Shown here: positions 8,593 to 55,015 of the stretch, one piece after another
Layout: the number at the start of each line of letters is the position of its first letter
How positions within the stretch are numbered: the stretch's first letter is position 1
DNA from: Candidatus Heimdallarchaeota archaeon
GTDB taxonomy: Archaea > Asgardarchaeota > Heimdallarchaeia > JABLTI01
Reading direction: 5' to 3'
Length of the DNA: 64,000 nt
NCBI GenBank assembly: GCA_019056785.1
Contig: DXJV01000059.1
Span: 1-64,000 of the forward strand
The notes under the pieces: model-generated
The model's input: the letters and a program-made list of their open reading frames with translations, nothing else
Databases searched by the model: none
Told to the model about the DNA's origin: nothing
Made by a program: the position numbers and the translations under genes

Positions 8593-8608
8593 TAGGTATG
8601 AGAAGTGA

Positions 8609-10624: not shown

Positions 10625-10648
10625 AAAAATATTCATATTAAAGACAAT

Positions 10649-10700
10649 AGGAGCACTTTTCCAAATGTAAGTGTAAAAGGTCTCCTTTTTTCTTCTTTTA
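10649..10700 (+). terminator. Imperfect hairpin followed by a T-rich tract downstream of the Nuo-like fusion
   Basis: AGGAGCACTTTT ... AAAAGGTCTCCT followed by TTTTTTCTTCTTTT. Confidence 0.35.
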
Positions 10701-10866
10701 TTATTAAATGAACAGCTGTTTGTGCTGATGTAAAAATAATAGTTAGTAATCCTTTTGAACCTAAAATTGAATTTAACGATTATCTTTCAACAAAACACAA
10801 AGAATTATAAAAACTACCATTTTCGTATTTGCTGTAAATGGCATTTTAAAAAAGGAATTTAAAACA

Positions 10867-11865: not shown

Positions 11866-11960
11866 CTTTAGCCTATAAATGGCGCTCTTCTTTCAGACTG
11901 AAAATTAATATCTCAAAAAGTGATTGTTTATTGGCGAAAGCTCAATAGTTGGCGAACTAA

Positions 11961-24287: not shown

Positions 24288-24427
24288 ATAACTATTCTCC
24301 TAGAACCGTTGATCGTGATTGTAATTAATATAAAAAATAATGCTTTCTCCTTAATTATAAAGCTATTTGTTTTTGCATCAAGAGAGAAAAAAAGTGCTAT
24401 ATAAGCACAGGACCACTTTAACAAGTA

Positions 24428-25240: not shown

Positions 25241-25350
25241 CCTTTTTTTCTAACAATTTTTCTCCTTCAATTCTTTTAATTGTATTCACTTATTGTTTTA
25301 CAATTATAAATCTGTTTTTCTTCAGTCATATAACTGCATTTACTTTGCTT

Positions 25351-26313
25351 TTAACTTATCACTTCTTCGTCTTTTTTACTCTCTTCAATGAGATTTTCAA
25401 TTGCTATGCGACCATTTTCGCCTTCTGTTAAGAAGATATCAAGAATCATTTCAGCAATTTGTTTTGCTTTACCCAAAGCATCACCACGTTCTACAAAAAG
25501 ACAACAAATTTTCTCTTTGCGAGTGACTAGGACCATTGAATAGTCACCAACAGTAACAACATCGAGAAAACTTGATTCTTTGAAAAGGGTTCTCGTCATG
25601 CTATTTAATGCAGAGAGAAGGCCGGTAATAAGAACGGCATCTTCGCTTTTATTAATAATGTTTGAGAATTGTGCATCGAAATCAAGCAAACCATTTACAT
25701 CATAAATTAATACTCGATGAACAGTTACACTCTCATGATATGCTTCGTAATCCATTAGCTTTGAAACGAACCAGTCAAATGCTCGATAAACACCATCACC
25801 GGTCAAAATGGTGCAAATCTCAAAGTGGAAGCTTCGAGGATCGTTTGGCGAGGAAATTTTCCCAAGGTCAAAGAAGGACAATGCCTTATTCAAATTAATC
25901 TTTCGCTCGGGATTGCGTTTGTTTATCAATGTTAATAAAGGAATGTTGGAAGGAATTTTATCAATGATTTTATGGAAATTCTCAGTAGAGTTCCGCAAAG
26001 ACTCGTCAGTCTCACCATTGATAACATAAACCACTCCATCTGCAATATTAAGAAAATACTCGATTATACGCTCGTCATTCAAGATTTCTTTACCCAAATC
26101 AATGAGTTTAAACCATTCAGTACCATAGGAAATGTCAATCCAATTGAATGCCGTTTCAGGAAAGACTTTGTCTCTGTTTGATGATAAGAGATAGTAAAGT
26201 AAAGTGGTTTTTCCGGAACCTTTTTCTCCCAAGAGAAGAACCCAAGGAATGGAATGCTTTGCATTCTGAAGAAAAGCAGTAAATGCTTCAACGGACTTTT
26301 TCAGATTTTTCAT
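25351..26313 (-). CDS. Degenerate Arf-like small GTPase fused to a C-terminal longin domain
   Basis: GEKGSGKT intact, G3 DLGKE, G4 NKRN. C-terminal VLIYDVNG...LITGLLSALNSM...VTVGDYSMVLV longin pattern. Confidence 0.75.
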   Translation of the reverse strand: MKNLKKSVEAFTAFLQNAKHSIPWVLLLGEKGSGKTTLLYYLLSSNRDKVFPETAFNWIDISYGTEWFKLIDLGKEILNDERIIEYFLNIADGVVYVINGETDESLRNSTENFHKIIDKIPSNIPLLTLINKRNPERKINLNKALSFFDLGKISSPNDPRSFHFEICTILTGDGVYRAFDWFVSKLMDYEAYHESVTVHRVLIYDVNGLLDFDAQFSNIINKSEDAVLITGLLSALNSMTRTLFKESSFLDVVTVGDYSMVLVTRKEKICCLFVERGDALGKAKQIAEMILDIFLTEGENGRIAIENLIEESKKDEEVIS

Positions 26314-26432
26314 AAGAGTCTCCCTTTCATCTTTGTAAATTATATTTACTTCAAAGTTTTTTAAATGTTCTTTTTGATAGTTTTGAAGGAAAAATCTCTT
26401 CTTTCGGTTTAGGAGAGGTTTTTAACCTTGTT

Positions 26433-27395
26433 TTAAGAGATAGCATCTAATGGGAAATAATTGGAAATAACTTTTTCGAGTGAAATTTGGTGCCCCTTTA
26501 AGTAATCCATCTCAATTGATTCGAAAATCCTGCTTGATATTGTTAAAACTCTACTAACAGGATCATTAACATCAATTAGAATCCCCATAACAAATAATTT
26601 GTTTTTAGTGATTACCAGTTGAAAGTCATTCATGATTTCCAGAACGGTCACTGCTTCATTATAGTCTCGCATTTGTTTAGCAAACCGTTCGGTTTCTTTT
26701 ATTGATTCCCTGTAAGCATTTGCTATCTTTGCCTGTTGGGTTGGGTTGCCAAAAATGGCATGATCTAACTCTTTAGCATTTGCATCAAAAATTGCTGCGG
26801 CATATATTTTAACATGCCAGGTTGGGATACTGCTATCTTTTGAAACGACATCAACAAGCCAATCCCAGGCTGTAAACAATCCTTCACCGGTTAAGGCTGA
26901 GCATCGAAACAGGTTGAATGGTCGTTCACCTCGGGTCATCTTATGAAGCTCCAGTGCTTCCATGACCTCTAAAGTTGATGCAGCTTCCTCTTTGTCTGAT
27001 TTATTAGCCAGGAACAAGATGGGTGCATTTGGGTCAGTGTTAGCCAAGGATTCATAAAAGACTTCTTTTGCAAGGTGGAATCGTTTTTGGTCTGCAGCAT
27101 CCACAACAAAGACTATTACAGATGCTTTTGTGACGAATTTCTTCCACAAAGTCTTACGTATTGGTGCATGCCCACCAAGGTCCCAAACAACGAATTCGAG
27201 TGTTCGGTAGCGATAAACCTCAATATTAACCCCAAAAGTTGGTTTAGAGAGTGTGTACTCTGATCGGAGAATGCGTTTCATAATGGTCGTTTTGCCAGCG
27301 GCATCTAAACCAATGATTGCTACATGTTGCTTAGCTTGCTCGCCCTCTTGGGCTTTTTTTCTGTCAGCACTTATTAATCTTCTAAGGAAACTCAA
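26433..27395 (-). CDS. Arf-like small GTPase with an N-terminal amphipathic segment and a C-terminal longin/roadblock-like domain
   Basis: GLDAAGKT (Arf signature), PTFGVN, WDLGGH, ANKSD, CSALTGEGL. A 125-aa alpha/beta extension follows. Confidence 0.85.
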   Translation of the reverse strand: MSFLRRLISADRKKAQEGEQAKQHVAIIGLDAAGKTTIMKRILRSEYTLSKPTFGVNIEVYRYRTLEFVVWDLGGHAPIRKTLWKKFVTKASVIVFVVDAADQKRFHLAKEVFYESLANTDPNAPILFLANKSDKEEAASTLEVMEALELHKMTRGERPFNLFRCSALTGEGLFTAWDWLVDVVSKDSSIPTWHVKIYAAAIFDANAKELDHAIFGNPTQQAKIANAYRESIKETERFAKQMRDYNEAVTVLEIMNDFQLVITKNKLFVMGILIDVNDPVSRVLTISSRIFESIEMDYLKGHQISLEKVISNYFPLDAIS

Positions 27396-27578: not shown

Positions 27579-28700
27579 TTAACTTTTTAAATGCTTTCGA
27601 ACATCCCGCGCAATCATTTCGGGTGAAGCGGCTGCAATAGGTTCGCGGTGAAGCAGCTCCATGAAACCTGTGTCGTTGGTATAATTTGGCATTAAAGTTG
27701 GACGACTAATAATCCTCAAATTAAGTCGATAAAATTTTTCGAGGGATTCATTTATTGGCCCACAATAGAGTGCCATATTAACTGCTGTTACTCCTCTACC
27801 ATGATATAATGCCCTAAATACCTGCACAAGCTCCTCTGCTAAAGCACCAACTTCTTCGTCCGAAAATTTTGTTATATCTGTTTTGGGGATTTTGATGATT
27901 CCTGTCAATTCATCTTTTCCAATGGGCGAAAAGGTTGCCGTCCAAGTCATAAAATCATTTTCAGTTATAAAGCGTTGATCTAATTCTTTCTCAGACTCGA
28001 GTAAATCCAACCAGTAATTCCTCCCTTTTGTTTCAGGAGTAGTTGTTGCGTTGTAATAATCCAGGCTTTTTGTAAGGAGCAAATCGGTGAGGTAAGTTGG
28101 TTTGTCATCAAGAATAATTTGAATGTGGGGATGAATAATTGATGAAGCGGAAGGTGGGAGAAAATTGAAGTTTATACTCGGGAATTTCAATTCCGGATTT
28201 AATTTATACACTGCCTTGAAGTATTTTATTGATCCAAGAATTGCATCTCGCCAAATAGCTGGCGAAAAATCTGGCAGGTTCGTAAAATGTTTTGAGCCGA
28301 GGGTAACTACTGCATGATTCTGTGAGAAAACAAATAGATTGGGGAAGACTATAATTTCGCCTATGCTAATTCGTTCTTCAAGAGCCAATTCCTCAGGAAA
28401 TTTAGGCGTGCTTTGTTTTAAAAAATTGGAACAGAAAAAGCATTTCTTGCTGGAAGCCTCAACGATTTTTTGTAAATTTGCTTCAAAATTTTCTCCTGGG
28501 AGTGTGGCTTGTTTCACGCGTTCTGCTCGTAAGGCATTTATTCGGGAAGGGATTTTCAGTAATGGATCGTATCTTCGCTCAATTTTTTGCTGCACAAGCT
28601 TAAATCCTTCCAAAGGGCTTCTAATTGTTGCTATAGCAATATCTTTTTCAAAGAGGATTTTTCCTTTTCCTTTCACGATTTCTTTCTTTGATGCTTCCAT
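27579..28700 (-). CDS. galT: Galactose-1-phosphate uridylyltransferase family (HIT-like)
   Basis: RYDPL, CFFC zinc site, VFPNLF, ASSIIHPHIQ (HxHxQ). Confidence 0.8.
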   Translation of the reverse strand: MEASKKEIVKGKGKILFEKDIAIATIRSPLEGFKLVQQKIERRYDPLLKIPSRINALRAERVKQATLPGENFEANLQKIVEASSKKCFFCSNFLKQSTPKFPEELALEERISIGEIIVFPNLFVFSQNHAVVTLGSKHFTNLPDFSPAIWRDAILGSIKYFKAVYKLNPELKFPSINFNFLPPSASSIIHPHIQIILDDKPTYLTDLLLTKSLDYYNATTTPETKGRNYWLDLLESEKELDQRFITENDFMTWTATFSPIGKDELTGIIKIPKTDITKFSDEEVGALAEELVQVFRALYHGRGVTAVNMALYCGPINESLEKFYRLNLRIISRPTLMPNYTNDTGFMELLHREPIAAASPEMIARDVRKHLKS

Positions 28701-40192: not shown

Positions 40193-42361
40193 TTATTTTG
40201 CTTTTTTCCCAATTTGTGTAATTTTTCGAAGGAATTGATCTTTTGGGAATAATATAACCAATCTTTTCAGTTCATTATAATATAGGTCAATCTTTTCTTT
40301 TTGTTGGAAAACTTTTGCAATCCCTAATAGAAATAGCAAGCCGATCGAGCCTCTCCGAGTAATTTCCTGTTGTTTACTATAAAGACTAATAAAATCTATT
40401 AGTTTATTCGAAAGCCAGTCGATTGTTTCTTGTTCTTGATTTGGGAAATCAAGGATAAGAAAATTCAAGGTGTCTAAATATTTCAGCTGAAGTTGTTCAT
40501 CGTACGAATGGACTTTTGCGATTTCTTCGTTAATTTCGAGTAGAATGGTTTTTTGCTTTTGATTTTTCGCTTCAAAAGATAAAATGCCTTCATTGATTGC
40601 ACGTGCAATTTTAAGGGGAATTTCTTCATCATTCAGAATTAATCGATTAGCAATTTCCAATTCTTCTTTAATTTTTAAGAATAGGGCATATTCACCTTTC
40701 CGTGCATAATAACTTAGCAAGTGTATTAAATTATCCACAAAATTATATTGTTGATAATACTTGTTTAAAAGTTTCAAACCCTTATGATTAAGGATTTTCA
40801 TGAGAACAAGGACTGCTTCACCATCAAAACGTGCTGCACGAAGGGTCACAGCTCGAACCAAAGGCTCAATGAGTTCAATGACGAATTTCTTTTCACAAAG
40901 TTTGTTCGTATGAGTTATAATCTCTTCTTTTGTTATCTTCAATTCTTTGGAATTAAATCCAAACATCCCCACTGCATAAATCAAGGCAAGAGTATGGAGC
41001 AAGTGGTTCTCAAGGTATATTTCATTATCAAAATGGAGTTGCCGTAAAAAGTTCACCTGGTTAACAATTGCGCTTTCTTTTGTTGCTGCAGTAGTTAAAT
41101 CATCCCGAAGTGAAATTGCATCTTGAATCTCGTTGATTGTTTGCCTATCAGGCGGGATTTGTCCGGTCTCTCTGAGATGTTCCTTCAGAGAAGCATCATA
41201 GTCAATGATCGCGTCAACTTCTTCGACAATAGTTATTGGGGTCAATGCATCCGGCTTTTGAGCGATGATTTGTCTATAAACTTCTTCAATATCATGGATG
41301 TTATTTAAATCGTAAGCAAGTACAATCCCCCGACGGCCTATTTTCAAGGCATCGTACTCCTCAATGCGCATTGTTTTCATGATTGACATGAGTTTTACTT
41401 CTGCTTCTCGTAAAAGCTGGTTTTTATCGCGTCCTTCTTTAAGTTCTTGAATGAGAGGGATGTCCATGAATTCATCCCAAAGATTAAATTGATCAAAAGC
41501 ATAACTAAGGCGATAAATATCCTCAAAAAGTGTTTTCCCTTTTTGTCGGAGCAAATATTCTGCATCTTGCAAAATATGCCGGATAAATTGAAGGCATTCC
41601 TTCTTCTTTTGTTTCTTATTCTGTCTTGCGAGATTAATTATCGCATTTATCGCTCCTTCCTGCAATATTTCATTTATATCCTCGCCAATTAATGAAGTCT
41701 TCAATCTATTTAGCAAAGGTTCTGCTTCAAGTTCATATTCGAAGTTGCTTATAGCGAAGCTACTGAGTTGCTGGTAGACTTTATTGATCAGTGAACAATC
41801 TTGGTCGTTTAAATAGAATAAGGTGTTCATGAAGACTTTTGCATCAAGAAGTTGAATGCTCTCAAGAAGAGGATGAAGAACAGCTTTTTCTTGAACGTGA
41901 TTCAAAATTTCTAAAATTTCAGTATCATCGCCCCATTTAATTAATTCTACGGCAGCAGCGGAAATTGCTTGAAAAACTTGCAACTTTTCCGGGAATCGTG
42001 CGAGAATCTCGAGTAAATCATTGAAAAAATTTGTTCGGGTTTTCCCTCGGACGGGGCGGCTATCAACAATCACTTGCGAGATAGCAAAAGCAAAAAATCG
42101 AAGAACTCCTTTGTTCTCCTTAGCAATTGCAACCACTTCAGCAAATTCGTTTAGAAGCATTTGTTCTGTTTCAAAATCATTTTGTTCACTAAAATGAAGG
42201 ATGACATTAAATAAAGTTTCAGCAAATTTAACTGTTGTTTGTTGATCCTTTTTCAAGTCGATTTTTTTTCGTAGAGAATGAATTTCAGTCAGAATCTCTT
42301 CTTTTGAAAGTTTATCTAGCTTGTCTCTGAGAGCGTTGATTGTTTCAGTCATGGTTTGCAC
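40193..42361 (-). CDS. Hypothetical all-alpha (solenoid-like) protein
   Basis: 722-aa ORF of amphipathic helices with recurring helical-hairpin patterns. No catalytic motif recognised. Confidence 0.6.
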   Translation of the reverse strand: MQTMTETINALRDKLDKLSKEEILTEIHSLRKKIDLKKDQQTTVKFAETLFNVILHFSEQNDFETEQMLLNEFAEVVAIAKENKGVLRFFAFAISQVIVDSRPVRGKTRTNFFNDLLEILARFPEKLQVFQAISAAAVELIKWGDDTEILEILNHVQEKAVLHPLLESIQLLDAKVFMNTLFYLNDQDCSLINKVYQQLSSFAISNFEYELEAEPLLNRLKTSLIGEDINEILQEGAINAIINLARQNKKQKKKECLQFIRHILQDAEYLLRQKGKTLFEDIYRLSYAFDQFNLWDEFMDIPLIQELKEGRDKNQLLREAEVKLMSIMKTMRIEEYDALKIGRRGIVLAYDLNNIHDIEEVYRQIIAQKPDALTPITIVEEVDAIIDYDASLKEHLRETGQIPPDRQTINEIQDAISLRDDLTTAATKESAIVNQVNFLRQLHFDNEIYLENHLLHTLALIYAVGMFGFNSKELKITKEEIITHTNKLCEKKFVIELIEPLVRAVTLRAARFDGEAVLVLMKILNHKGLKLLNKYYQQYNFVDNLIHLLSYYARKGEYALFLKIKEELEIANRLILNDEEIPLKIARAINEGILSFEAKNQKQKTILLEINEEIAKVHSYDEQLQLKYLDTLNFLILDFPNQEQETIDWLSNKLIDFISLYSKQQEITRRGSIGLLFLLGIAKVFQQKEKIDLYYNELKRLVILFPKDQFLRKITQIGKKAK

Positions 42362-42548: not shown

Positions 42549-43100
42549 TTACAACATTTTTGATGGGAGTTCTGCCATTTTCTTTTTAATGAATTCTCGT
42601 CGTTCTCCACGGGACTTGAATTTGGTAATTTCGTCTTTGTATTTCTCCATGACAATTTGTCGTTGGAAGAAAGCATATAAGGTGTCATAGAATGGAAATT
42701 CCATCTCCAGTGCATCGTGGTCAGAATCGACAAGCAAGGGAGCACCGCTAGCAATAACCTCAAGGCCAAGAGCCAATGGTTCTTCCTCTAATTTGCCTGT
42801 GTCAGCGGCGCGAACAACTTTCTGAAGTCGGGCAAGGGCTTCATCATCTCCGAGTTTGTACTTTTTAACAATGGCATCAAAAGTACAAAACTTTTCATCA
42901 TTTTCTTTGTAGTGATCTAATTCAATGCCGGTGCCAGTATCATAAGGTATTGCGCCGGTTTTTTCGACAAACTCAGGAATCTCTTCACGTGGCAAGAAAA
43001 TGAATTGCGCTTTCAAATCGATAAAGCGTTTGATAAGCCAAGGAGAAGCGACTCGATCAACATGGACATAATCACGTGTAACCCAAAGCATAAAATTCAT
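42549..43100 (-). CDS. Chromate resistance protein ChrB-domain protein
   Basis: WVTR..HVDRVASPWLIKRFID..A.FIF, CTFD, VRAAD, YDTLY. Confidence 0.85.
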   Translation of the reverse strand: MNFMLWVTRDYVHVDRVASPWLIKRFIDLKAQFIFLPREEIPEFVEKTGAIPYDTGTGIELDHYKENDEKFCTFDAIVKKYKLGDDEALARLQKVVRAADTGKLEEEPLALGLEVIASGAPLLVDSDHDALEMEFPFYDTLYAFFQRQIVMEKYKDEITKFKSRGERREFIKKKMAELPSKML

Positions 43101-43316: not shown

Positions 43317-46300
43317 TTACTGGTCATAATAATTTTGATCATCAGAATAGTACTGTGAATAGTCTTGCTGTTGTTGTTCTCCTTCTTGAGAGTATTGTTG
43401 GTCTTGGGAATATTGATCAGGGTAAGAAAAGTCTACTTCTTGATAATAATGGTCAATTGGGGGTTGTTGATAGAACTCTTTGCGGAAACCAAAGATGCTT
43501 TCAACTAGTAGCGGTGCGGCTGAAAACTCATTTAAGTCTATAAGTTCAGAAGTGAGTTGGTGTTTGAAAGTGACCTCAAATTCATCAAGGAATCGTAATA
43601 CTAGTTCTTTCAAAATTGGTTTTACATCATTCACTAGTAAAATGGCATTGCCAAAATAACCAATGGCAACAATTAACCGCTTCTCACCGAACTCAAGCAC
43701 TTGGGTTTGCTGTTCAAGATCCGTTTCGCCTGTAATTTCTCTAAGAATTCCAACAATGCCGGTGAGAGCACCACCAAAGAGTTGTTCGTCTTCAAACAAG
43801 TCTTTGGAGTAGGGAACATATGTAAGCGTCAAACCATTTTTAGTGACGTAAGCTACTGCTTCCAAGCTTTTTTGCCAGCCTTTATTAATGCGTTTTTTCT
43901 TTGTCGCAACGACCAAAATGGTAGAAAAGATGATTGCAATTATCAATCCCCCTCCCACCGGGAGAACAATGGTGTAGAGGTTCTCTTTCAACCATTGGAA
44001 TAAGGGGCTAGCCGACCCTCCGTTGTTTCCTGAAGCCATCTTCAACTCTAAGGGATAGGTAGTTGTTTGAAGGGAATTACCAGCGCTGTCTGTTATAATA
44101 AAGCTTAATGTAAAGTTCCCTTCGCCAAGAGTAGATAAATTAAGAGATGTAGTAAAAATATAAATGCCATTTAGTCCTTGGACCAGGGTCATCTGAATTG
44201 TTTCATTTATGCCATTCCCTGCAATAACTAAGCTAATTGATGCTACCCCATAATTGTCTTGAGCTGAGAGTGAAATATTAATCATATTTGCACTAGTGTT
44301 TGTAGAAAGTTCGAATTCATTTTTATAGTTTGATAATACACGATCGCCAAAGATGATGGAACCAAAAATGCTTGGATCAACTTTATCAATTATTACTTCA
44401 ATAACAAGTGTTCTTCCACGATCAGCGGTGTCATAAACAGTGATTGTAAGATTATGGTGTTCGCCGGGAGCAACGAAGTTATCTTCGGTGACATTTACTT
44501 CAAGCCAGAAAGGTTGGTCAAGGATGTTACCAACATAGCTCTTATAATAAACTACTACTTGTCCATCGGCTATTACCTGGACTTCTTTCACACCAAGCCG
44601 GGTATCAAAAACTGTGAGGTTTATAATGAAATTGGGGTTGTTAGTAACATAGCTTTGAGGAATATTCACAAAAAATTCAGGTGCCTGCGGATAAAGTTCA
44701 ACAGTGATTGTCGCTTTTTTAGTGTTATGTGCAGCATCAAAAGCTTCAACAGTAATGTTATGATGGCCATCAGCAAAAGAAGAAACGTCAAAGAATTGTG
44801 CAGTAGTCAAGTCGTTAAAGGTGCCCATGAAAGTAGTGTTAATCCAGACATTGTATCCTGCAATTCCTGACCCGGAATCAAAAGCAGACCATTCAACATA
44901 CAAATTATCTTCCAGAATTAACTCGAGGTTATTGGGAGTTAATATCGCAACGCTTGGCGCTAATTGATCGATCCAGACAAAACGCATGTCGACAAACTGG
45001 AAGCTACTTCCAATTAATACTGCAATTGTCACATTGAAAACGGGGAAGTCCGAGGGATTGATAGCTCCAAAATCCACAATTGTTGATAAAGTGGTATTGC
45101 TATATGCCCCATATAAGGTTCCATTAACAAAAACATAAAACTGGTCAACAAAGATGTTTTTCACATTCCAGGTGAAATTAACTGTTGTGGAATAAGAATA
45201 ACTCGAGAATTCTATGGGATCTATGATATTAAAGGAGGGGGCGAGAGTATTGTGTTGAACAGAAATTGTTTGTTCAGTAAAATGACCTATATAATCTATA
45301 ACTCGAATAGTAATAGTTGAAGAAGCATTAGCAGGAATGGTAAACTCATAAAAACTACTTGAGGGGTCAGTTAAAGTATCAATTTGGAGACCATTAAGGA
45401 AAACGGCATATTCTTTAATACCCGTACCATTGTCATTTGCATCCCAGAAAACCGTCACAACTTCCGAACTGGTAAGAAAACCATCTTCTGGTGAAGTGAT
45501 TTCTAAGGAAGGTGCGAAGGTATCAAGAGCAATTGTGTAGTAATCCAAAGCATAATTTCCTGCTTTGTCCCATGCCATTATTAAAATTTCATTAAAGCCT
45601 TCGGAGAGAGTAATTGTGTCATTAAAAATTGTGTTATCATAAAAACTGTAGAAGATATCATTAATTTCTAACTCGAAATAATCAATACCACTCCCACCGC
45701 TATTGTCGACGCCGATCCATTCCACGAATAGGGACAGATTGTCAGTATAATACCAATTGTCTTCTTGCGGTAGGGTTAAAGGTTCAAGAGCAACTGTGGG
45801 AGTGACAGTATCTCGTGTAATCGTTATTGATCTTGACTTGTTATGCCCAACAGCATCTGAAGCAACCACTTGAATTTGATATTGCTTATCAAAAGGCAAG
45901 TCTACAACAGTAGAATGTGAATCTGTAACGTCGATGCTTTTACCATCTAAATAAATCTGATAGAATTCAACCCACGACCATTCATCATAGCCATCCCACT
46001 CAAGATTAATTGATGAGGATTTAACTGCAGAATTATCGATGGGGGAAGTAATCTCTAAGTAGGGGGGAGAATTATCATAAATGATAAAGACAGTATCTTT
46101 ACCTTTATTGTTGCTTGTATCTTTGCCAATAATGGTTACATTGTAGATTCCTTCGCCGGCATCAAGAGTGAGCCAAAGTGAGGTGGCTGACTCGTCGCTT
46201 TTTTGTAGTGAGCCATTAACATAAGCATCAAAAAGAACATCGTCTCCTTCAGGGTCATAATAATCATACGAAACTTGAATCAGGTCGGAGTCGACGATAT

Positions 46301-48608
46301 CATCCCATTGTGGATCAGTAATCGTGACTTCAGGTGCACTTTGTGAGTATTCAATTGAAATGTAATCATGAGCAACAAAGCCAAGAACATCATAGGCATA
46401 TATTTCAATATCATTGCTCCCAAGAAGTAAACTAATATAGGCACCTCGTTGACCCGCACCAGCACGAGTTTGGAAGGCACCATTGATATAAATGTCGAAA
46501 AACTCCATTGGATTGGAGTCATTAGAGATAGACCATTGGATAAGAAGACTTTCTCGGTTGGAAGTGTAACCAGAGGAGGGAGAAGTGAAGGAGACGCTGG
46601 GAGGATTACCAATACCGAGAATGATGATTTGCCCGGTATAATCACCGATGATGGCTTCCAAATCATCATCTTCATCGATATCATAACCAATAATTGAGCT
46701 CTTGGCTCCAATAGTTGCTCCGAGATCTCCTGACCATTCTTCAGTATAAACCAAATCCTTTGCGTAGGGTGTAGCATTTAAATTCGTAACTTGTAAAATT
46801 TTCACGGTACCGTTAGAACAACCAATGATTAATTCATTGTAAGTATCGTCATCAATATCAAAAACGGCTGCACCACCAGCAAAATTGGGGTTACTACCAT
46901 CATTTACATTAAATTCTAAGGGGATGGAACTGTCATTAAAAGTAAATTGGCCGAAGATCTTTACAGTATTTCTTCCAACGATTACTGTCTCGTTTTCACC
47001 GTCATTATCTACATCTGCAACAACAATTGTATGGCCGAAATAGTCAAGTGTATTGTTATGTGACTCGGCTGGAAGATCATCTTCTGGAGTATAAACAGTA
47101 CTATTAGTTGGATTGTCATAATAGCTTGTGCCATCCATTTCGATGATTTGGAGCATTGTTGGAGAAATAGAATTGGTATCATTAATCTGCGAGAAGAAAA
47201 GCAATTCATTCCAAGCATCTCCATCCATATCAGCAATTTCGAGCTCATGAATTCTAGAGACTTCTTCGCGGTTAATTTTGTAAGGAGTTAAATAACCAGC
47301 TAAAGTGAATTTGTCCGGTGGTTTTGAATAAGTTAAGACTCCTATTTGTCCTGTTTCATCACCAAAAAGGATTTGTTTGGAGCCGTCATTTTTATTCATT
47401 GCATCTCCAATTGCAATATGCCCCAACAATTTATCGCCATAGTTATCAAAAATAACACTTGATTCATCAAAATCTTTTGTTACATCATTCCAGTCATATA
47501 ATCGACCGATGCGACTATCTGAACCGACACCGTAAAGCTCATCCTTTCCATCCTCATCGAAATCATAAGCAGCTATTTCAGTGATCTGAAAGAGATCGCT
47601 GTAGTGTTCCGATTCCCACGAACCCCAAATACGTGTAAGTTTTCCATTAACATAATCAAAAATAGCTATTAACTTATCATCTCCAGAGACACGACGATTG
47701 GAAACCACAACAAGCTCTTTATCTCCATCGCCATTAATGTCGGCAAGAGTCAAGTAGGTATTATTACCAGGTCCGATGGCACCATCTTTTATATTGAAAT
47801 TATCTTCAATGATATATTCTTCAAAGAAATGCTGATCACCTAAATGAATATCACCCCATTGGCTAGGGTCATTTGCGAAGGAAGCAATATTGTCAGGGAC
47901 AACGGGCCAAGTGATGAAATCACTAAGAGTGGAGAGGTCTGAAGTAGCAATAACACTCCAACCAAGAATTTTATCGTTCACAGGAGTGGAATAAGGAATC
48001 TTAATCTCATACTGTCGATGGGCAGTAAGATTGTTAAAGGCAGAAGTTGAAAAGCCAGTATCGACAATAATCCCACTCGAGGCGAGAGCAATGCCTGGAC
48101 CTGCTTCTTCGATAAAGACCCAGTCCTGTAAAACGTAACTATAACTGTATAAGTCAACAACTTCTATTCCACTATTGTAACGATACCTTAGTCGATAATC
48201 TGCTGTGCTCAGCCAACCATTATGGTCCAAATCAAGATATACCACCATCCCAAAAGTGGAAGATGGAACCTCTACTATGAAACTCGTACAATCCAAAGCA
48301 ATATACACCGTAACATTATCATTTTGAACAAGTAGTTTTCCTTCGGAATTTCCCTTTTCATTAAATAAATTATATACCGCTGCAGAGGTCCATTCTTGAG
48401 AGCGGTCATAAAGCTTGAAATCAATATTCCCGTCTATGGTCGGAGCGGTCTCATTCCAGATGGAGAAAAGCTCTATCGGTTCTGCAACAGGAGAATGTCC
48501 TTGAATATGAAACACTTGAAATTGATTGATAGTAAGAAAAGTAGTAATAAAGAATAGTGCAACACAAATTGCCAATTTTGATTCTCTTCTAATTTTAAAA
48601 TTATACAT
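43317..48608 (-). CDS. Giant single-pass surface protein: signal peptide, sugar-binding-like domain, 7x FG-GAP-like propeller, about 9 Ig-like repeats, TM, cytoplasmic longin domain, Q/Y/D-rich tail
   Basis: APTIDG N-domain. Seven DxDxDG-type loops. Repeats P.xxI(T)SP...W...D..G(N). TM IVLPVGGGLIIAIIFSTILVVA then KKKR. Longin pattern YVTKNG...QLFGGALTGIVGILREI...LEFGEKRLIV. Confidence 0.8.
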   Translation of the reverse strand: MYNFKIRRESKLAICVALFFITTFLTINQFQVFHIQGHSPVAEPIELFSIWNETAPTIDGNIDFKLYDRSQEWTSAAVYNLFNEKGNSEGKLLVQNDNVTVYIALDCTSFIVEVPSSTFGMVVYLDLDHNGWLSTADYRLRYRYNSGIEVVDLYSYSYVLQDWVFIEEAGPGIALASSGIIVDTGFSTSAFNNLTAHRQYEIKIPYSTPVNDKILGWSVIATSDLSTLSDFITWPVVPDNIASFANDPSQWGDIHLGDQHFFEEYIIEDNFNIKDGAIGPGNNTYLTLADINGDGDKELVVVSNRRVSGDDKLIAIFDYVNGKLTRIWGSWESEHYSDLFQITEIAAYDFDEDGKDELYGVGSDSRIGRLYDWNDVTKDFDESSVIFDNYGDKLLGHIAIGDAMNKNDGSKQILFGDETGQIGVLTYSKPPDKFTLAGYLTPYKINREEVSRIHELEIADMDGDAWNELLFFSQINDTNSISPTMLQIIEMDGTSYYDNPTNSTVYTPEDDLPAESHNNTLDYFGHTIVVADVDNDGENETVIVGRNTVKIFGQFTFNDSSIPLEFNVNDGSNPNFAGGAAVFDIDDDTYNELIIGCSNGTVKILQVTNLNATPYAKDLVYTEEWSGDLGATIGAKSSIIGYDIDEDDDLEAIIGDYTGQIIILGIGNPPSVSFTSPSSGYTSNRESLLIQWSISNDSNPMEFFDIYINGAFQTRAGAGQRGAYISLLLGSNDIEIYAYDVLGFVAHDYISIEYSQSAPEVTITDPQWDDIVDSDLIQVSYDYYDPEGDDVLFDAYVNGSLQKSDESATSLWLTLDAGEGIYNVTIIGKDTSNNKGKDTVFIIYDNSPPYLEITSPIDNSAVKSSSINLEWDGYDEWSWVEFYQIYLDGKSIDVTDSHSTVVDLPFDKQYQIQVVASDAVGHNKSRSITITRDTVTPTVALEPLTLPQEDNWYYTDNLSLFVEWIGVDNSGGSGIDYFELEINDIFYSFYDNTIFNDTITLSEGFNEILIMAWDKAGNYALDYYTIALDTFAPSLEITSPEDGFLTSSEVVTVFWDANDNGTGIKEYAVFLNGLQIDTLTDPSSSFYEFTIPANASSTITIRVIDYIGHFTEQTISVQHNTLAPSFNIIDPIEFSSYSYSTTVNFTWNVKNIFVDQFYVFVNGTLYGAYSNTTLSTIVDFGAINPSDFPVFNVTIAVLIGSSFQFVDMRFVWIDQLAPSVAILTPNNLELILEDNLYVEWSAFDSGSGIAGYNVWINTTFMGTFNDLTTAQFFDVSSFADGHHNITVEAFDAAHNTKKATITVELYPQAPEFFVNIPQSYVTNNPNFIINLTVFDTRLGVKEVQVIADGQVVVYYKSYVGNILDQPFWLEVNVTEDNFVAPGEHHNLTITVYDTADRGRTLVIEVIIDKVDPSIFGSIIFGDRVLSNYKNEFELSTNTSANMINISLSAQDNYGVASISLVIAGNGINETIQMTLVQGLNGIYIFTTSLNLSTLGEGNFTLSFIITDSAGNSLQTTTYPLELKMASGNNGGSASPLFQWLKENLYTIVLPVGGGLIIAIIFSTILVVATKKKRINKGWQKSLEAVAYVTKNGLTLTYVPYSKDLFEDEQLFGGALTGIVGILREITGETDLEQQTQVLEFGEKRLIVAIGYFGNAILLVNDVKPILKELVLRFLDEFEVTFKHQLTSELIDLNEFSAAPLLVESIFGFRKEFYQQPPIDHYYQEVDFSYPDQYSQDQQYSQEGEQQQQDYSQYYSDDQNYYDQ

Positions 48609-48770: not shown

Positions 48771-51700
48771 TCATTTAAAAGACAATTGCGAAATTGCTTT
48801 GCGAATTTTTTCGGCAGTATCTCTTGGTTCGTCCAAGACAAAGGCAAATTCCATTATTTTTTCAGTGAATGGTTCAAGATGGACAAGAGAGTTCAACCAG
48901 ACAATTAGCATTATACCTAAATCTACAATTGTGACTGTGCCGGTTGTTTTCTCTGAAACAAAGAAAGCGATGGATTGTTCATCTTTAAAGATGCGACTCA
49001 AAGCTTTCCCAAAGGGATTAAACGCTGTAAATTGTTGTTTCACTGCATTATGAAACCAGAGTTCTTTTTCTGCTTGAACTTCGACTTTTGTTCCTTCAAT
49101 TGTTCCTTGAAGGCCCACGTCACAAATAAACGTTCCAACAAAAGGCACTACTCTCGGTGTGGGGTTTTCAACTTTAAGTCGAATGAGTACTATTTTACTA
49201 TTTGGAAAAGTAAGATACTCAATTTCACACTTTAACCCTGTGAGAAACTCCTTGTCATTTTGTATGGTAAAGATTGATTTTGTTCCTTTCCAAACGCCTT
49301 TTTCACATTTAACTGTTCTAACTTTTTCTGGCTCAGTGAAAATCTCTTCTGAAGCGGGATGGAACATTTGGGGTTGAATCCCACCAAGATAATGTTCTAG
49401 GAAATACTTGGCTTTGATTTCCGGGAAACTATCGATAAGGTATTCTCGGCCTTGGTTGTCAGTGAGTCGGATAAGGTTCCCACCTTCTTCAGCGACAACA
49501 TCGAATGTTAGAAGACCATTTTGAACCTTGAACAATTCTTTCTTCTGATCAACAACTTGCGAAACTGACACTTCGCCTTGGGAGGCTACTAACACAAAAT
49601 TATCAAAAGAAATTTCGAATTCTCCTTTGTAAAGGACTTGAAGATTTTCAACAATATTAGAGTAGTTGGCAGGAATAATAACTTCAATTGGCAAAGTGAC
49701 TTTTTTAAGGAATCCCCCCTTGGGCACAGAGATCGTTCTTTTCAACCCGCTATTTGTATCAAACATTGCTTGCCAACCGGAAGGGGCAACTAAGGACAAT
49801 TCACCTTGAAATGGATAATTCGTTGCAAAATGAACCTCGAGAGATAATTTGTTTGTTTTACCTGCAAATAAAACTTGACTCTTTGCTAATGTAATGTCAA
49901 AGTCTTTAATGATTTCTGGGCCCATTAGCATTTCTTCGAATGGAAAGCTTGCCTTCCCAATAAGTTGGCTCCATCGTTGTCGAACCTGTTGAAGGTTAGT
50001 AAATCCAAAAGAATACCAAAGTTCAATGGGTTGATAACTTTTACCAGGAGAAATTTCTACAGCTTTACTTTCAAGGTTGTTTAGCATTCCTTTGCGTAGA
50101 TTTACTTTTTCAATGGTACTGGGATCCCAAATCCAGGCTGTAAGCTCGTTAGAGGCCAGCATTTTACTTGCGGACCAGCTTTCATGCCAGAGTGTTGCAT
50201 CTGTTGGAATCATCGGTGTTGTAAGGAAATTCGTAAATGTCTCAGTTTCAATTATTTTGCCTTCTAAAGGCGCATATCCTTTCGCCTTCATCAAATACGG
50301 ATTCATGCTAATACCATGATGGAACGCGCCTGTTTTTGCTGAGGTAAGAATTGTCTTTTGGGCATTTAGATTCGTATATTTGGTCCAAAAATGAACTTCT
50401 TCCAATCCTGCTTTTAATTCCAGAAACTTCTCAATAAGCAATCCTTCTATCTGCCGGCTTTTTGCAGTTAACTTTAGTAAAAGACCATCTCTTTTTCTCC
50501 TAAGATGGTAGTCAAATTTTAGAGTTGTGTCACGTGATAAACCATAGGGCGGCCCGGCTTGTAGCCTAAGTTGTGAAAAGCCATTCTTCTCTCCATGATA
50601 TATTTTCATGTTCCCCCCTTCAAGTGAAACCTCAACAGCTAACTTGTCAGTGAGGAGATAGAGCCGTTCTGTTTCTTGTATTGTAGCGTATTCAGCAAGA
50701 CCTGCAACACGAGCGAAAATTGGCAGTTCAAAAACAGGCAGTTCGATTGTTGTATCCTCATACTGTAGAAAAGGTATCATTGCAATTTTGTTCACATTAT
50801 GAGGGTTGGTTGCAGGAAAAGCGTAAGGAAAGGAAATGCCAGAAACATCGTTTGGTTTTAGCTCTACTGTGATTTTTCTTTCTTGGTTGCTACTTTTTTG
50901 CTCTTTGATTTGCACAAAACCTTGGATGGGTAAATCAGTGGTGTTTAGAATATCCAAAGAAATGGTGCTTTCTCTACCCTTAGGTATAACAACGAATTGT
51001 TCTTCCTCAAAAGTTCGAAGTTTGATTGGCGATTGTATCTTACCACTGGTAACAAACTCGAGGGAATACCCTCCAAAAGAAATGTTTGTAGTAATGCTCT
51101 TACAAGCTTGTTCTGCTCCTTTGTAAAGATTTGCATTTTTGTCAAGAGTGAATTTACAACTAACAATTTTTTGCTCGTCTTTTTTCACTCGAACTTTTTT
51201 TGGCAACGTGCCTTGCCAATGCAATCCAGGGAACTTTTGAACAAATAAAGAGCATTCAAAATCTTCTGCTAAACCATTTTGAAACTCGATTTTAAATTCA
51301 TTAGGAATGCCAATAAAGAGATTGTGATTTTTTAAGCGTGTTTTAATTTTTATTGATTGTTCACCTAATTTACTAAAGATGCCTGAAATTCCCCACCCAA
51401 ACCGATCTATTTCCACTTCTAAAAGGTCTGACTCTTCTTTAAATCGGTAAATGAAAAGTTCCATATTATCAATAACCATCTTGTCAGGTTCTTGATTCAA
51501 TTCTCGGTCGAAATTTGCATACCAATCCGGATGTTTAGAGAACCATTCTTTAGCAATGGGGTTTTGTTTTATACCAGGAATATAATCTTGCATATAGACA
51601 GCTGTTTCAGGGACCCAAAAAAGACCAACTTTTTTATAAAGAGGAACAGCATCCAAATTCCCAGACCAAGTATGTAAATCAACTCGTGTTATTCCTTTTT

Positions 51701-52040
51701 CTTCCGCAATCTCGAGTGCTTTAAGAAGAAGCCTCTTCCCAAACCTCTGTCCTTTGACTTTTGGAATTACCCCTAAAATAGAAATATAAGCTGCTTTCTC
51801 ATCACGCCAATGAGGATACAAACCACAATAGCCACAGAGCTCACCATCCTCATCAACTGCGAGAAGATCAGCTATTGCAGAGGTTTTATCCAACCAATCA
51901 TGTACTCTTTCTGCAGTGTAAGGAACTCCACCGCCAAATCCCCCAGGCCATAATTTGTTGAATTCATTAAACATTACTGCAGCTTTTTCAGCAAGAGAAG
52001 GGTCATAAAGAATAATTTTTCCTTTTTGTTGTGAGGTCAT
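48771..52040 (-). CDS. Large GNAT family N-acetyltransferase with a long beta-rich C-terminal region
   Basis: LGVIPKVKGQRFGKRLL, DLHTWSGN..AVPLYKKVG, followed by about 900 aa of beta-rich sequence. Confidence 0.8.
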   Translation of the reverse strand: MTSQQKGKIILYDPSLAEKAAVMFNEFNKLWPGGFGGGVPYTAERVHDWLDKTSAIADLLAVDEDGELCGYCGLYPHWRDEKAAYISILGVIPKVKGQRFGKRLLLKALEIAEEKGITRVDLHTWSGNLDAVPLYKKVGLFWVPETAVYMQDYIPGIKQNPIAKEWFSKHPDWYANFDRELNQEPDKMVIDNMELFIYRFKEESDLLEVEIDRFGWGISGIFSKLGEQSIKIKTRLKNHNLFIGIPNEFKIEFQNGLAEDFECSLFVQKFPGLHWQGTLPKKVRVKKDEQKIVSCKFTLDKNANLYKGAEQACKSITTNISFGGYSLEFVTSGKIQSPIKLRTFEEEQFVVIPKGRESTISLDILNTTDLPIQGFVQIKEQKSSNQERKITVELKPNDVSGISFPYAFPATNPHNVNKIAMIPFLQYEDTTIELPVFELPIFARVAGLAEYATIQETERLYLLTDKLAVEVSLEGGNMKIYHGEKNGFSQLRLQAGPPYGLSRDTTLKFDYHLRRKRDGLLLKLTAKSRQIEGLLIEKFLELKAGLEEVHFWTKYTNLNAQKTILTSAKTGAFHHGISMNPYLMKAKGYAPLEGKIIETETFTNFLTTPMIPTDATLWHESWSASKMLASNELTAWIWDPSTIEKVNLRKGMLNNLESKAVEISPGKSYQPIELWYSFGFTNLQQVRQRWSQLIGKASFPFEEMLMGPEIIKDFDITLAKSQVLFAGKTNKLSLEVHFATNYPFQGELSLVAPSGWQAMFDTNSGLKRTISVPKGGFLKKVTLPIEVIIPANYSNIVENLQVLYKGEFEISFDNFVLVASQGEVSVSQVVDQKKELFKVQNGLLTFDVVAEEGGNLIRLTDNQGREYLIDSFPEIKAKYFLEHYLGGIQPQMFHPASEEIFTEPEKVRTVKCEKGVWKGTKSIFTIQNDKEFLTGLKCEIEYLTFPNSKIVLIRLKVENPTPRVVPFVGTFICDVGLQGTIEGTKVEVQAEKELWFHNAVKQQFTAFNPFGKALSRIFKDEQSIAFFVSEKTTGTVTIVDLGIMLIVWLNSLVHLEPFTEKIMEFAFVLDEPRDTAEKIRKAISQLSFK

Positions 52041-52204: not shown

Positions 52205-55015
52205 TCATGTAATTTTTAATAATTTTAATTCAAACGGCTTAAATTTCAAGTTAAAATTACCGTTTGTGATTGTTAGTGTTTTTTTACAAACACCTTCAAT
52301 GGTTTTTTCCTCACACTTTTGGAATTTTGCAACTGTTGTAATTGGTAGTTCTACAGGGTTTTGATCAATATTATAAAGCAAAACAGTCAGTGCATTGTCA
52401 CGAATGCGCAGTGAGGAAATCTTGATCATTGATTCCTTAAAACTAATGAGGGGTTTCTGGAGCTTACTAACAAGTGTATTGTTAACAAAAGGATAGCTAA
52501 CCGGTGGAAGGGCGAAACTTTCTGCAGCATTTACTGTTTCATTTATAGGCATCTCTTTTGCATGAATTAACAAGCTATATTCGAATGTGTATTCTTTGTG
52601 AAGCTCTTGTGCTCCGGGCGTTTCTAGAAATGGTCCTGCATGCATCGGTCTCTCTGGGAAGTCTTGTCTCGAGAGAAAACCAACGGCTCGAATTAACGTT
52701 AGCGCCAATTTTTGTTTGTGTACTAATTCAACTTCTGGGAGCCCTTTATTAAATAATGAGAAAGCTGCTTGAGTTTTGGGGTCTTCAATTCGAATAAATC
52801 TTTTTTGCGGTTGGATTCCTGATGGCTGTTCCGCAAATTCCTCGAGTGAAACGGGTTCTCCTTGCCTTTCAATGAAACCAAAATGAGTGGAAGTTTTTGT
52901 GGTTGGGCTTTCAAAAGGCAATGGGAAACAAATGCGAAGACGATGGTCCTTTGCAGTATTTGTTAGTGTTATAGTAATGTCGATTCGTGGGAGGTCCCGA
53001 TAAAAACGAAAAGTGGTAGAAACAGGAATAATCGCCTTACCAGAACGTTTTGTTCTGTCCTCACTTAATTCAGCATAAACTTTGAGAAGCATTGTTTGTT
53101 CAATTTCTGCGAAAAGCGGTCCGACAGTTTTTAGTTTACGATGAACTTTTACCGCTCGTGCCTTGTCAGGTTTTACAGCGCTAAAAGTGTACTCATCCCC
53201 CCGGTCGCCAAGATCCTCGAAGGCATGTTGATTTGTGAAAAGAACGTTTCTTTGCTTGTCAAAAAGTGAAAATGTTCCATTGCGATTGAATTTTACCCAG
53301 TAGAATTTATTCGAAATGCTATTTTTTGTAACGGTTAATTTTTCCTTGAGGGTTTTCTTGGTTGGTTGATCGCTTAAAAGTAATTTTTCATAACTCCAAG
53401 GTCGTAATGGTACGAGAGCAAGATAAGAGCGTTGAGAACCCAGGGTTGCTTTTACATGAAATTTTTTATATTTGCCAGAGTCAACAAGGGCGAGCACTTT
53501 CTCCTTTAGTTTTTGCGTGTTAAGTTCTCCGATCAGCTTTTTACCAAGAATCATGGTAATATGGTAAAGAGTGGGATCAGCAACATCTTCTGCAAAGAAC
53601 ACTTCATTAAGGTAAACATCCATCAACTTTCTCCCAGGGAGCATTTTTATCCCGGTTTTGATGAAAAAGGGTTTGAAATTATTTTCAAACAGAATCTCTT
53701 CTGATGAGCTAATTGGCTGAACGGGAAATTCCTCGCCATTGGTTGTGAAGACTTTTTTCACGTTCATTTTTACAGGGGCTTTAAATCGAATCAAGCTGGG
53801 AGATGTGCCATTGTTTGAAGGGTTATAAGTTAGAAGGGAAGTACTGTTTTCAGTGGCTTTCTTCTGCAATTTTTCTTCCAATGACTCAAAAAGGCCTGAA
53901 CAAATACTTTCAGCCCACGAAAAGCGACTAATCATTTCATTATGTGTTTGGTCAACACTACAACCACATATGGAGTCATGGGGCTGATTTTTCAAAAACC
54001 AATTCCAAGCAAGTTCAATGAGGTTCTTTGGATAGTCGAGTATTTCAGCTAGCTTGAGAATTGTAAATTGTGGCTCGAGATAGTGGACCAGCAAATCTTC
54101 TATCTTGGCATTCCAAAGTTTAATCCACATCCGAGTAGAATAAGTATCTTGTAAAAGTGGTGCGCGAGCAGAAGAACGAAATTCGCCGGCATAAATATCC
54201 AATTGGACTTGTTCTTCAGTAATCCTTTCGTCCAGTTTTCGTATATACTCTTCCAAAAGCGACAGGTGTATCTTCATTCCTTTAATTTTCACTTTAGGAA
54301 GATTGGTGATAAGTGATTTGTTTGGAAATTGATGGTCAGTGCCATTCATTAGCAAAAAGAGGGGGAGAGGGGAGAAAGGTTCGAGATCTCGAACAATGCC
54401 GGAAATATCATTAGGAAGGACCGAAAGCTCACTTGAAAGATAGGCTGCATTTCCATAGCTAAAAGGGAGGTAATTCACTTTAATTATCGTTTCGGCTTTC
54501 GGGTGGCATTTCCAGAAGAAAGGCACTTTGGTAATCTCATTGCCAACGCCACGCCAGATAACAGCCCACCGAAGGGTAGTTAAATCACCTAAAAGTTGTG
54601 GTATTGCTCGAGTGTGTCCGAATTGATCAGGCAAATAACCAACATTCATTAGAGGGATCTGATACTTTTGACTAAGAGTAAGAGCGAATTCTAAATTTCT
54701 CACAAAACTCTCCTGACCAATTAACCATTCGTCAGGGAGAAGATACCAGGGGCCGACAGCAACCTTTCCGGCACGAATAACCTCAAGAAACTGTTCCTTG
54801 TGTTCTGGCTTCACTTCGAAAAAGTCTTCAAGTATGATTGTTTGTCCATCAAAAGTAAATGAGTAATCATTCTCTTCTAAAATCTCTAACAAGTCTTCAA
54901 TAAGCTCTACGAGTTTTAAACGAAACTCTTGAAACGGTTTATACCATTCACGATCCCAGTGGGTAGAAGGAACAATAAAGACTTCTTTCATAGCATTGGC
55001 TTTTTTTCCGGTCAA
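52205..55015 (-). CDS. GH38 alpha-mannosidase
   Basis: THWDREWY, FDGQ, GPWYLLPDE, YLPDQFGH, NGTDH, HDSICGCS, DHRLR, LTLIRAVG. Confidence 0.93.
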   Translation of the reverse strand: MTGKKANAMKEVFIVPSTHWDREWYKPFQEFRLKLVELIEDLLEILEENDYSFTFDGQTIILEDFFEVKPEHKEQFLEVIRAGKVAVGPWYLLPDEWLIGQESFVRNLEFALTLSQKYQIPLMNVGYLPDQFGHTRAIPQLLGDLTTLRWAVIWRGVGNEITKVPFFWKCHPKAETIIKVNYLPFSYGNAAYLSSELSVLPNDISGIVRDLEPFSPLPLFLLMNGTDHQFPNKSLITNLPKVKIKGMKIHLSLLEEYIRKLDERITEEQVQLDIYAGEFRSSARAPLLQDTYSTRMWIKLWNAKIEDLLVHYLEPQFTILKLAEILDYPKNLIELAWNWFLKNQPHDSICGCSVDQTHNEMISRFSWAESICSGLFESLEEKLQKKATENSTSLLTYNPSNNGTSPSLIRFKAPVKMNVKKVFTTNGEEFPVQPISSSEEILFENNFKPFFIKTGIKMLPGRKLMDVYLNEVFFAEDVADPTLYHITMILGKKLIGELNTQKLKEKVLALVDSGKYKKFHVKATLGSQRSYLALVPLRPWSYEKLLLSDQPTKKTLKEKLTVTKNSISNKFYWVKFNRNGTFSLFDKQRNVLFTNQHAFEDLGDRGDEYTFSAVKPDKARAVKVHRKLKTVGPLFAEIEQTMLLKVYAELSEDRTKRSGKAIIPVSTTFRFYRDLPRIDITITLTNTAKDHRLRICFPLPFESPTTKTSTHFGFIERQGEPVSLEEFAEQPSGIQPQKRFIRIEDPKTQAAFSLFNKGLPEVELVHKQKLALTLIRAVGFLSRQDFPERPMHAGPFLETPGAQELHKEYTFEYSLLIHAKEMPINETVNAAESFALPPVSYPFVNNTLVSKLQKPLISFKESMIKISSLRIRDNALTVLLYNIDQNPVELPITTVAKFQKCEEKTIEGVCKKTLTITNGNFNLKFKPFELKLLKIT

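Follow-up and report, generated by a model that had tools for sequence, protein, structure and literature searches.

What does a longin domain do at the cytoplasmic end of a large archaeal cell-surface protein, and could it carry a signal from outside the cell to small GTPases? The longin fold is used by eukaryotes to dock small GTPases. Asgard genomes hold dozens of small GTPases as well as longin and roadblock proteins, yet the functions of both, and the route by which the GTPases reach the membrane, are obscure because operon context rarely pairs them (PMC10933270). The Asgard longins described to date are soluble or are fused to GTPase, roadblock or TRAPPC3 domains (PMC10933270; bioRxiv 10.1101/2020.10.19.343400). 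The present analysis concerns the gene at 43317-48608 (minus strand) of a 64,000-nucleotide window, namely positions 1 to 64,000 of contig DXJV01000059.1 of a Candidatus Heimdallarchaeota archaeon (assembly GCA_019056785.1). An earlier note on this DNA had read the gene product as an integrin-alpha-like surface receptor joined to a cytoplasmic longin domain. We tentatively favour, at somewhat short of an even chance, the reading that this product is a type I surface glycoprotein of a conserved family, with a longin tethered by its transmembrane (TM) helix, and that it acts as a receptor whose paired longins dock or regulate a small GTPase.

The gene is a single unbroken open reading frame (ORF) encoding a product of 1763 amino acids (aa). 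From the N- to the C-terminus, this product comprises a signal anchor, an N-domain, seven FG-GAP-type repeats, nine immunoglobulin (Ig)-like repeats, a TM helix followed by KKKR, a cytoplasmic domain of 142 aa and a Q/Y/D-rich tail (Table 1). A hydropathy scan of the protein revealed only two hydrophobic segments of TM length, at residues ~9-33 and 1544-1569, the second of which is followed by KKKR at residues 1570-1573, in agreement with the single TM helix and basic cluster that had been noted previously. All 33 NxS/T sequons (potential N-glycosylation sites) fall within residues 52-1498, and none is present in the last 265 residues, whereas the density seen in the ectodomain would predict approximately four for the cytoplasmic part. 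The C-terminal domain is placed in the cytoplasm, where the earlier note had also put it, because no sequons occur after the TM helix and because basic residues follow this helix, in line with the positive-inside rule. As far as sequence can tell, a type I cell-surface glycoprotein with a cytoplasmic C-terminal domain is therefore strongly supported. The linker between the TM helix and this domain consists of just the four basic residues KKKR, and the cytoplasmic strings on which the longin proposal had been founded were located at residues 1587, 1609 and 1638.

When 1.84 billion cluster representatives were searched exhaustively with phmmer, only 44 relatives of the cytoplasmic domain were retrieved, most of them lying at the C-terminus of a protein 1500-1900 aa long. 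AlphaFold2 (AF2) returned an unusable model from the single sequence (predicted local distance difference test, pLDDT, of 39), and with an alignment of 40 sequences (A1) it returned a model with a pLDDT of 89.4 and a predicted template modelling score (pTM) of 0.84. The strands (E) and helices (H) of the latter model, E9-16, E21-26, H35-53, E62-67, E70-76, E80-86, H91-113 and H125-133, follow the longin order β1-β2-α1-β3-β4-β5-α2-α3, with two C-terminal helices. When the model was compared with 48,161 chains using VIA-align, longins ranked first and spanned the whole domain (from model residues ~1-8 to ~135): VAMP7 (Z 12.8, 119 aligned residues), the Lokiarchaeal Roadblock-Longin protein 8yqg (Z 11.9, 127 aligned residues, root-mean-square deviation 3.0), Sec22 (Z 11.9), CPLANE (Z 11.6) and Mon1-Ccz1 (Z 10.8), with AP sigma also being matched.

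Roadblocks were among the leading VIA-align matches (Z 10.3-11.6), covering model residues 4-113 only, and Foldseek detected the core that roadblocks and longins share, with MglB first (E 6e-5) and with AP sigma, COPI zeta and the LAMTORs at E ~1e-4. A roadblock/LC7 (MglB-like) fold was considered and rejected, as the model has no N-terminal helix, just a four-residue turn (H5-8) before β1, and has two C-terminal helices instead. At the sequence level, a profile of the domain searched against the PDB reached a sole family, Bet5/TRAPPC1 (E 0.0026). Pfam gave no match for the cytoplasmic domain of the window's protein at E<=1 and, across 40 family members, only sub-threshold matches in 1-3 of the 40 (Robl_LC7, Fuz_longin_1, Intu_longin_1 and Sybindin). 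The confidence of the model, its element order and its full-domain longin matches together support the longin fold that had been proposed for this domain.

The window also encodes two adjacent Arf-like GTPases of 320 aa (25351-26313 and 26433-27395, minus strand; Pfam SRPRB match), with tails of ~130 aa, and the earlier note had claimed a resemblance between the receptor longin and the tail of the first. This resemblance withstood profile-profile comparison by hhalign, in which the receptor longin and a tail profile built from 25 tail relatives aligned over 83 columns of the β1-β5 core with a probability of 95.2% and an E-value of 2.7e-8. The receptor-longin profile reached a probability of 50.7% against the single sequence of 25351-26313, and BLASTP of the cytoplasmic domain against both 320-aa GTPases returned nothing significant. 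Furthermore, the receptor-longin profile A1 found no match to the GTPase at 26433-27395, nor to the genes at 24428-25240 (270 aa) and 27579-28700 (373 aa). Judged by these profiles, the homology between the receptor longin and the tail of 25351-26313 is real but remote, and the tail may be either a longin or a roadblock. A Ras-like GTPase gene (23763-24287) lies in the same cluster. The GTPase-tail family forms abutting tandem gene pairs in the sister family too. Rag C-terminal domains pair with LAMTOR roadblocks, and the tandem Arf-like pairs recall, by analogy, the Rag heterodimers.

Prediction of a homodimer from two copies of the longin (alignment A1) gave a score of 0.49 (runs of 0.46, 0.49 and 0.50), against 0.01 for the best of three controls. 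Of 30 proteins with structures solved as same-chain pairs, 20 reach the mark that this score passes, against 1 of 23 whose structures are single chains; these counts apply only roughly here, since a custom alignment was used. Contact agreement between the runs was >=92% and the partner pLDDT was >=82. The predicted interface is symmetric and is built from helix α1 (38-55) and strand β3 (61-72); this predicted mode of pairing corresponds to the classic roadblock/longin dimer interface, which is used by roadblock/longin GTPase platforms. Across paralogs, conservation of the predicted interface is 36-68% versus 29-40% for the rest of the domain, while the TM helix, which is 40-63% identical among orthologs, contains a small-residue run, VGGG (SAGG in orthologs). 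Both features are compatible with pairing.

The whole protein has been kept in 12 further loci, at 35-51% identity over ~1750 aa. The named public contigs that carry the domain derive from Heimdallarchaeota metagenome-assembled genomes (MAGs), plus one labelled Bathyarchaeia. When 400 genomes of the phylum were compared, only the window's own family showed strong matches located in ~1800-aa frames, with two to five copies in each of its 11 genomes (11 of 11), and weaker matches (E 1e-9 to 1e-18) were found in 250 of the 400. It is thus strongly supported that the architecture is conserved as a multi-paralog family within one family of the Heimdall group. Clear family members also appear under the labels Bathyarchaeia (loci L008 and L015: DATKZI010000014.1 and DATKZI010000020.1) and Zixibacteria or Thorarchaeota (protein-level records P0054 and P0055); such labels probably denote mis-binned or mislabelled MAG contigs. 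Public names for these proteins are 'hypothetical' or 'Ig-like domain-containing protein', leaving the longin unannotated.

Three types can be told apart by what accompanies the longin: an acidic Q/Y-rich tail (type A, to which the window's protein belongs), a helical domain of ~130 aa ending in ...EKW (type B), or a different helical domain (type C). The second copy in the window's own genome, on another contig, has a type B end, but its longin lies nearer to another subgroup. Among orthologs, identity is highest in the longin (57-70%), followed by the propeller (47-61%), the stalk (39-48%) and the Q/Y/D tail (5-32%); when paralogs are compared, the propeller is best conserved (44-48%). In five sister genomes (L008-L012, ~6650-12400, minus strand), types A and B are arranged tail-to-tail, with 47-422 bp between their 3' ends. 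The place of the type B partner is taken in the window by two other genes, a ChrB_C gene (42549-43100) and an ORF of 722 aa (40193-42361).

The earlier note had suggested a survey of ectodomain-TM-longin proteins in Asgard genomes; here, a sample of the distant matches was examined, comprising 27 loci and 32 ORFs that carry this longin type. TM helices lie N-terminal to the longin in 28 of the 32, mostly with 2-28 aa between the last helix and the domain; one of the 28, the FrhB-like ORF of locus L072 (gap of 136 aa), is doubtful. Three classes can be distinguished among the tethered proteins. The first has 4-7 TM helices in 345-420 aa; the second is MFS-like, with 8-11 TM helices in 510-575 aa, P0044 and P0074 being matched by Pfam MFS_1/Sugar_tr; and the third comprises glycosylated type I proteins of 564-1570 aa. 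There is therefore strong support for an Asgard-wide longin subtype that in most cases directly follows the final TM helix of an integral membrane protein.

Several members of this wider group deserve mention. Tandem pairs of MFS-like proteins with 9-11 TM helices occur at L024:3280-6780 (plus strand) and L065:3012-6399 (minus strand), each protein ending in the same longin type 2-8 residues after its last TM helix. At L072:1884-4551 (plus strand), an FrhB/FdhB-like F420-dependent enzyme is fused to this longin type, and a Ras-family GTPase gene is located 560 bp downstream. The window's own genome contains at least 21 ORFs with the receptor's longin type and at least 35 small-GTPase-like ORFs. 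It also contains ORFs of ~700-735 aa with a C-terminal longin-type domain (C43:6138-8222, C94:29598-31781, C95:4483-6690 and C74:34362-36548), which are matched by both the receptor-longin and the GTPase-tail profiles. This suggests one broad, expanded longin family in the genome.

How might such a protein function? The large head, composed of the N-domain and the propeller and raised on a stalk of nine repeats, would serve as a receptor for adhesion or for a ligand, and a stalk of this length would be expected to hold it tens of nanometres from the membrane. If such receptors cluster or pair outside the cell, two longin domains would meet on the cytoplasmic side of the membrane, and the paired longins may there dock a small GTPase or a GTPase-longin fusion, or regulate it, these proteins being without lipid anchors in Asgards. 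Such docking would be analogous to that of Ragulator-Rag, SRX-SRβ or TRAPP/Mon1-Ccz1. Outside-in signalling to GTPases may reasonably be inferred, and the protein represents a concrete candidate for a link between the cell surface and eukaryote-like GTPase machinery. In a distant Asgard (L022:5209-14537, plus strand), a Ras-family GTPase gene comes just 13 bp after the gene for a type I longin glycoprotein of 1570 aa, although this is a single anecdote. Further along the same locus lie genes for a CxxCxxCC protein, a PAS/GAF histidine kinase and a response regulator, and upstream of it one for a divergent soluble longin protein of 276 aa.

A number of observations weigh against a role in GTPase docking. 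The fold alone does not give the function, VAMP7 and Sec22 being longin proteins that do not act on GTPases, and the outcome of the dimer prediction may stem from the predictor's memory of solved dimers (8yqg, MglB and LAMTOR2/3); it indicates likeness and not binding. No conserved GTPase neighbour of the receptor family was found: the GTPase-longin genes of the window (23763-27395) sit 16-20 kb from the receptor gene, and the only nearby case is at the own-genome paralog, where an Arf-like-plus-tail gene (C74:713-1645) lies 2.2 kb away, with a lactate permease gene between them, in an arrangement that is not conserved. Around the 27 distant longin loci, six GTPase genes were counted in 228 kb versus approximately one per 82 kb in the window's own genome, an enrichment that is not convincing. 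Co-distribution of the receptor and the GTPase tail was examined and rejected, the tail being present in 13 of 13 sampled genomes of the sister family f3, in which the receptor profile yields no strong matches and just 3/31 weak ones. Finally, some proteins with this longin subtype are soluble, as exemplified by the FrhB-like enzyme fusion.

The same lack of a conserved GTPase neighbour would suit a structural adhesin or surface-coat protein, in which the ectodomain attaches to cells, minerals or polymers and the longin only pairs the molecules or links them to the cytoskeleton or to a scaffold in the cytoplasm, with no GTPase involved. Proteins with FG-GAP/VCBS and Ig-like repeats are common among prokaryotic surface proteins, the public annotations speak of Ig-like domains only, and self-pairing is the one interaction that has in-silico support. 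Indeed, two to five paralogs per genome, with two types convergently arranged in the sister genomes, are as expected of variable surface components. Among orthologs, however, it is the longin that is best conserved, and its subtype is also found on transporters and on small multi-pass proteins, where an adhesive ectodomain is lacking; the longin therefore appears to have a general cytoplasmic function and not a structural role specific to an adhesin. On balance, a purely structural role seems rather unlikely to us.

The ectodomain was examined with regard to both its resemblance to integrins and its possible ligands. All seven of the Ca-loop motifs on which the earlier note had based its propeller are present, at residues 289, 348, 401, 459, 531, 583 and 642, with a spacing of 52-72 aa and each in the same hydrophobic-DxDxDG-xxE-hydrophobic context. 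The common context and regular spacing therefore define seven repeat units, over which Pfam FG-GAP_3 scores 33 bits versus a cut-off of 26.9. We infer a seven-bladed β-propeller, with the blade count derived from the sequence repeats only. The stalk (residues 669-1535) divides into nine units of ~96 aa, matching the previous estimate of about nine Ig-like repeats; the start of seven of these units is marked by a regular 'xP-x-hydrophobic-x-hydrophobic-xxP' pattern, while the other two were positioned by eye (~941 and ~1410). The N-domain displays 30 invariant columns in alignment A3 and, over residues 35-274, has no match in the PDB or Pfam.

The likeness to integrin alpha chains found no specific support on closer comparison. 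The layout is shared, namely seven FG-GAP-type repeats with Ca loops (DxDxDG loops, with FG-GAP_3 above its cut-off), an Ig-like stalk and a single TM helix, and it is this layout that would favour a true homolog or ancestor of these chains. However, the propeller profile (alignment A4), when searched against PDB sequences at E<=1, matched CRTAC1 (E 8.6e-7), the PL11 lyases YesW/YesX (~1e-4) and ITFG2 (4e-3) best and reached no integrin alpha chain; a Pfam scan of the protein at E<=1 revealed no Integrin_alpha2 (thigh/calf) domain, and the sequence behind the TM helix reads KKKRINKGW, where the integrin GFFKR motif is not found. Integrins, moreover, do not have Ca loops in all seven blades or an extra N-terminal domain, whereas the Heimdall protein has both, together with a folded cytoplasmic domain. 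A search of its own genome (82.5% complete) for Integrin_beta (PF00362) gave no match, but the control search matched nowhere either. Membership of the integrins is accordingly not supported by these comparisons; the resemblance appears to be an analogy of layout only, and shared descent with integrin alpha chains is very improbable. CRTAC1, YesW/YesX and ITFG2 supply the closest propellers by sequence profile, although in none of them does the propeller occur together with a stalk of nine repeats, a TM helix and a longin.

The presence of the PL11 rhamnogalacturonan lyases YesW/YesX among the best propeller relatives raises the question as to whether the protein is a nutrient 'transceptor', whose propeller and N-domain would bind or cleave polysaccharide and whose longin would signal the availability of substrate to regulators in the cytoplasm or serve as a sorting tag in the trafficking of membrane proteins. 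The fusion of the same longin type to MFS-like transporters is in keeping with such a role, as are weak CBM9 and Glucodextran_C leads for the N-domain in an Atlas feature search, and so is the gene neighbourhood. Directly upstream of the receptor gene, 48771-52040 (minus strand) encodes a protein of 1089 aa with an N-terminal GNAT domain and ~950 aa without assignment, which is syntenic in the five loci L008-L012, and two genes upstream lies a GH38 alpha-mannosidase gene (52205-55015, minus strand), which may matter if the ectodomain binds glycans. The lyase matches, however, cover just 70-110 residues of repeat sequence, the Atlas scores of 0.82-0.86 are within the range reached by shuffled sequences, and the synteny holds only among close relatives. 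A transceptor consequently strikes us as improbable. Downstream of the gene, an oligo-T-rich stretch is likely to be an archaeal terminator, judging by its letters. As regards expression, the population occurs in marine and hydrothermal sediments, and none of the public sequencing runs listed as containing it was of RNA. The features of the receptor gene are compiled in Table 1.

Table 1. Features of the receptor gene and its product in the 64,000-nucleotide window.
Feature	Position	Strand	Basis
N-terminal signal anchor or signal peptide, aa 9-33	48510..48584	-	Hydropathy scan and translation; preceded by basic K5, R7, R8, K11
Extracellular N-domain, aa 35-274, with conserved W-N-x-T-x-P-T-I-D-G and HRQYE motifs	47787..48506	-	Alignment A3
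Seven FG-GAP/VCBS-type repeats with DxDxDG-type Ca-loops, aa 275-668; putative seven-bladed β-propeller	46605..47786	-	Motif register, Pfam FG-GAP_3, profile matches
Stalk of nine Ig-like repeats, aa 669-1535	44004..46604	-	Pfam Big_7 x4, Glucodextran_B x3, Big_13 x2; repeat boundaries
TM helix (aa 1544-1569), the only one, with VGGG as a run of small residues, then the stop-transfer KKKR (aa 1570-1573)	43890..43979	-	Hydropathy
Cytoplasmic domain with predicted longin fold, aa 1574-1715, directly after KKKR	43464..43889	-	AF2 model, VIA-align, profile match
Low-complexity Q/Y/D/E-rich cytoplasmic tail, aa 1716-1763 (48 aa)	43320..43463	-	Translations; composition kept in orthologs, sequence not
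Oligo-T-rich stretch right after the stop codon	43270..43316	-	Read from sequence

Having weighed these alternatives, we return to the receptor with GTPase-docking longins and to the systems with which it may be compared. The dimeric Lokiarchaeota longin 8yqg and the Asgard roadblock/longin proteins (PMC10933270) have the same fold and element order and are likewise of Asgard origin, and 8yqg is dimeric, a homodimer via α1/β3 being predicted for the receptor longin; in contrast to the described Asgard longins, the domain here forms the part of a type I surface glycoprotein of 1763 aa that lies inside the cell, right after the KKKR stop-transfer. TRAPPC1/Bet5-TRAPPC4, Mon1-Ccz1, Fuzzy-Inturned (CPLANE) and AP sigma match the fold over the whole domain (Z 9.4-11.6), yet they are soluble subunits of multi-subunit complexes, whereas the Heimdall domain is TM-tethered. 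The R-SNAREs VAMP7, Sec22b and Ykt6 also carry longins in TM-anchored proteins, and VAMP7 and Sec22 are the top structural matches. Their order is longin, SNARE motif and C-terminal TM helix, however, with longin and motif cytosolic, while the Heimdall protein has no SNARE motif and its TM helix is N-terminal to the longin.

In concept, the nearest parallels are SRα SRX-SRβ of the signal recognition particle receptor (SR) and Ragulator-Rag, in each of which a membrane-bound longin or roadblock module docks an Arf-like or Rag-like GTPase. SRX is matched structurally at Z 10.1-10.5, and, as in the Ragulator-Rag system, there are GTPases, the Arf-like ones of the window, with a tail that appears homologous to the membrane-bound module. 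The anchoring differs: in the SR complex the TM helix is on the GTPase and the longin is soluble, and Ragulator is anchored by lipidated LAMTOR1 and employs roadblock domains, not longins. Neither has an ectodomain. Asgard longin fusions are known in general (PMC10933270; bioRxiv 10.1101/2020.10.19.343400), and no description of a receptor-type or TM-tethered form was found in the literature; the main text of a structural survey (Nat Microbiol 2026) mentions neither longin nor integrin.

With its longin fixed on the cytoplasmic side of the membrane and a large head outside the cell, the protein offers a defined bait for pull-downs, GEF/GAP assays and structural studies, and the wider family of TM-tethered longins suggests a general design and not a one-off fusion. 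A bolder view, which we consider unlikely but worth stating, is that membrane-tethered longins, carried by receptors, transporters and small multi-pass proteins, are a general Asgard device for bringing GTPases (or GTPase-longin fusions) that lack lipid anchors to the membrane, a prokaryotic forerunner of docking of the Ragulator-Rag, SR and TRAPP type, and that the Heimdall receptors have placed this device under the control of extracellular ligands, amounting to true outside-in GTPase signalling. If docking of GTPases by these longins is true, membrane-anchored longin platforms, and their control by receptors, would predate eukaryotes.

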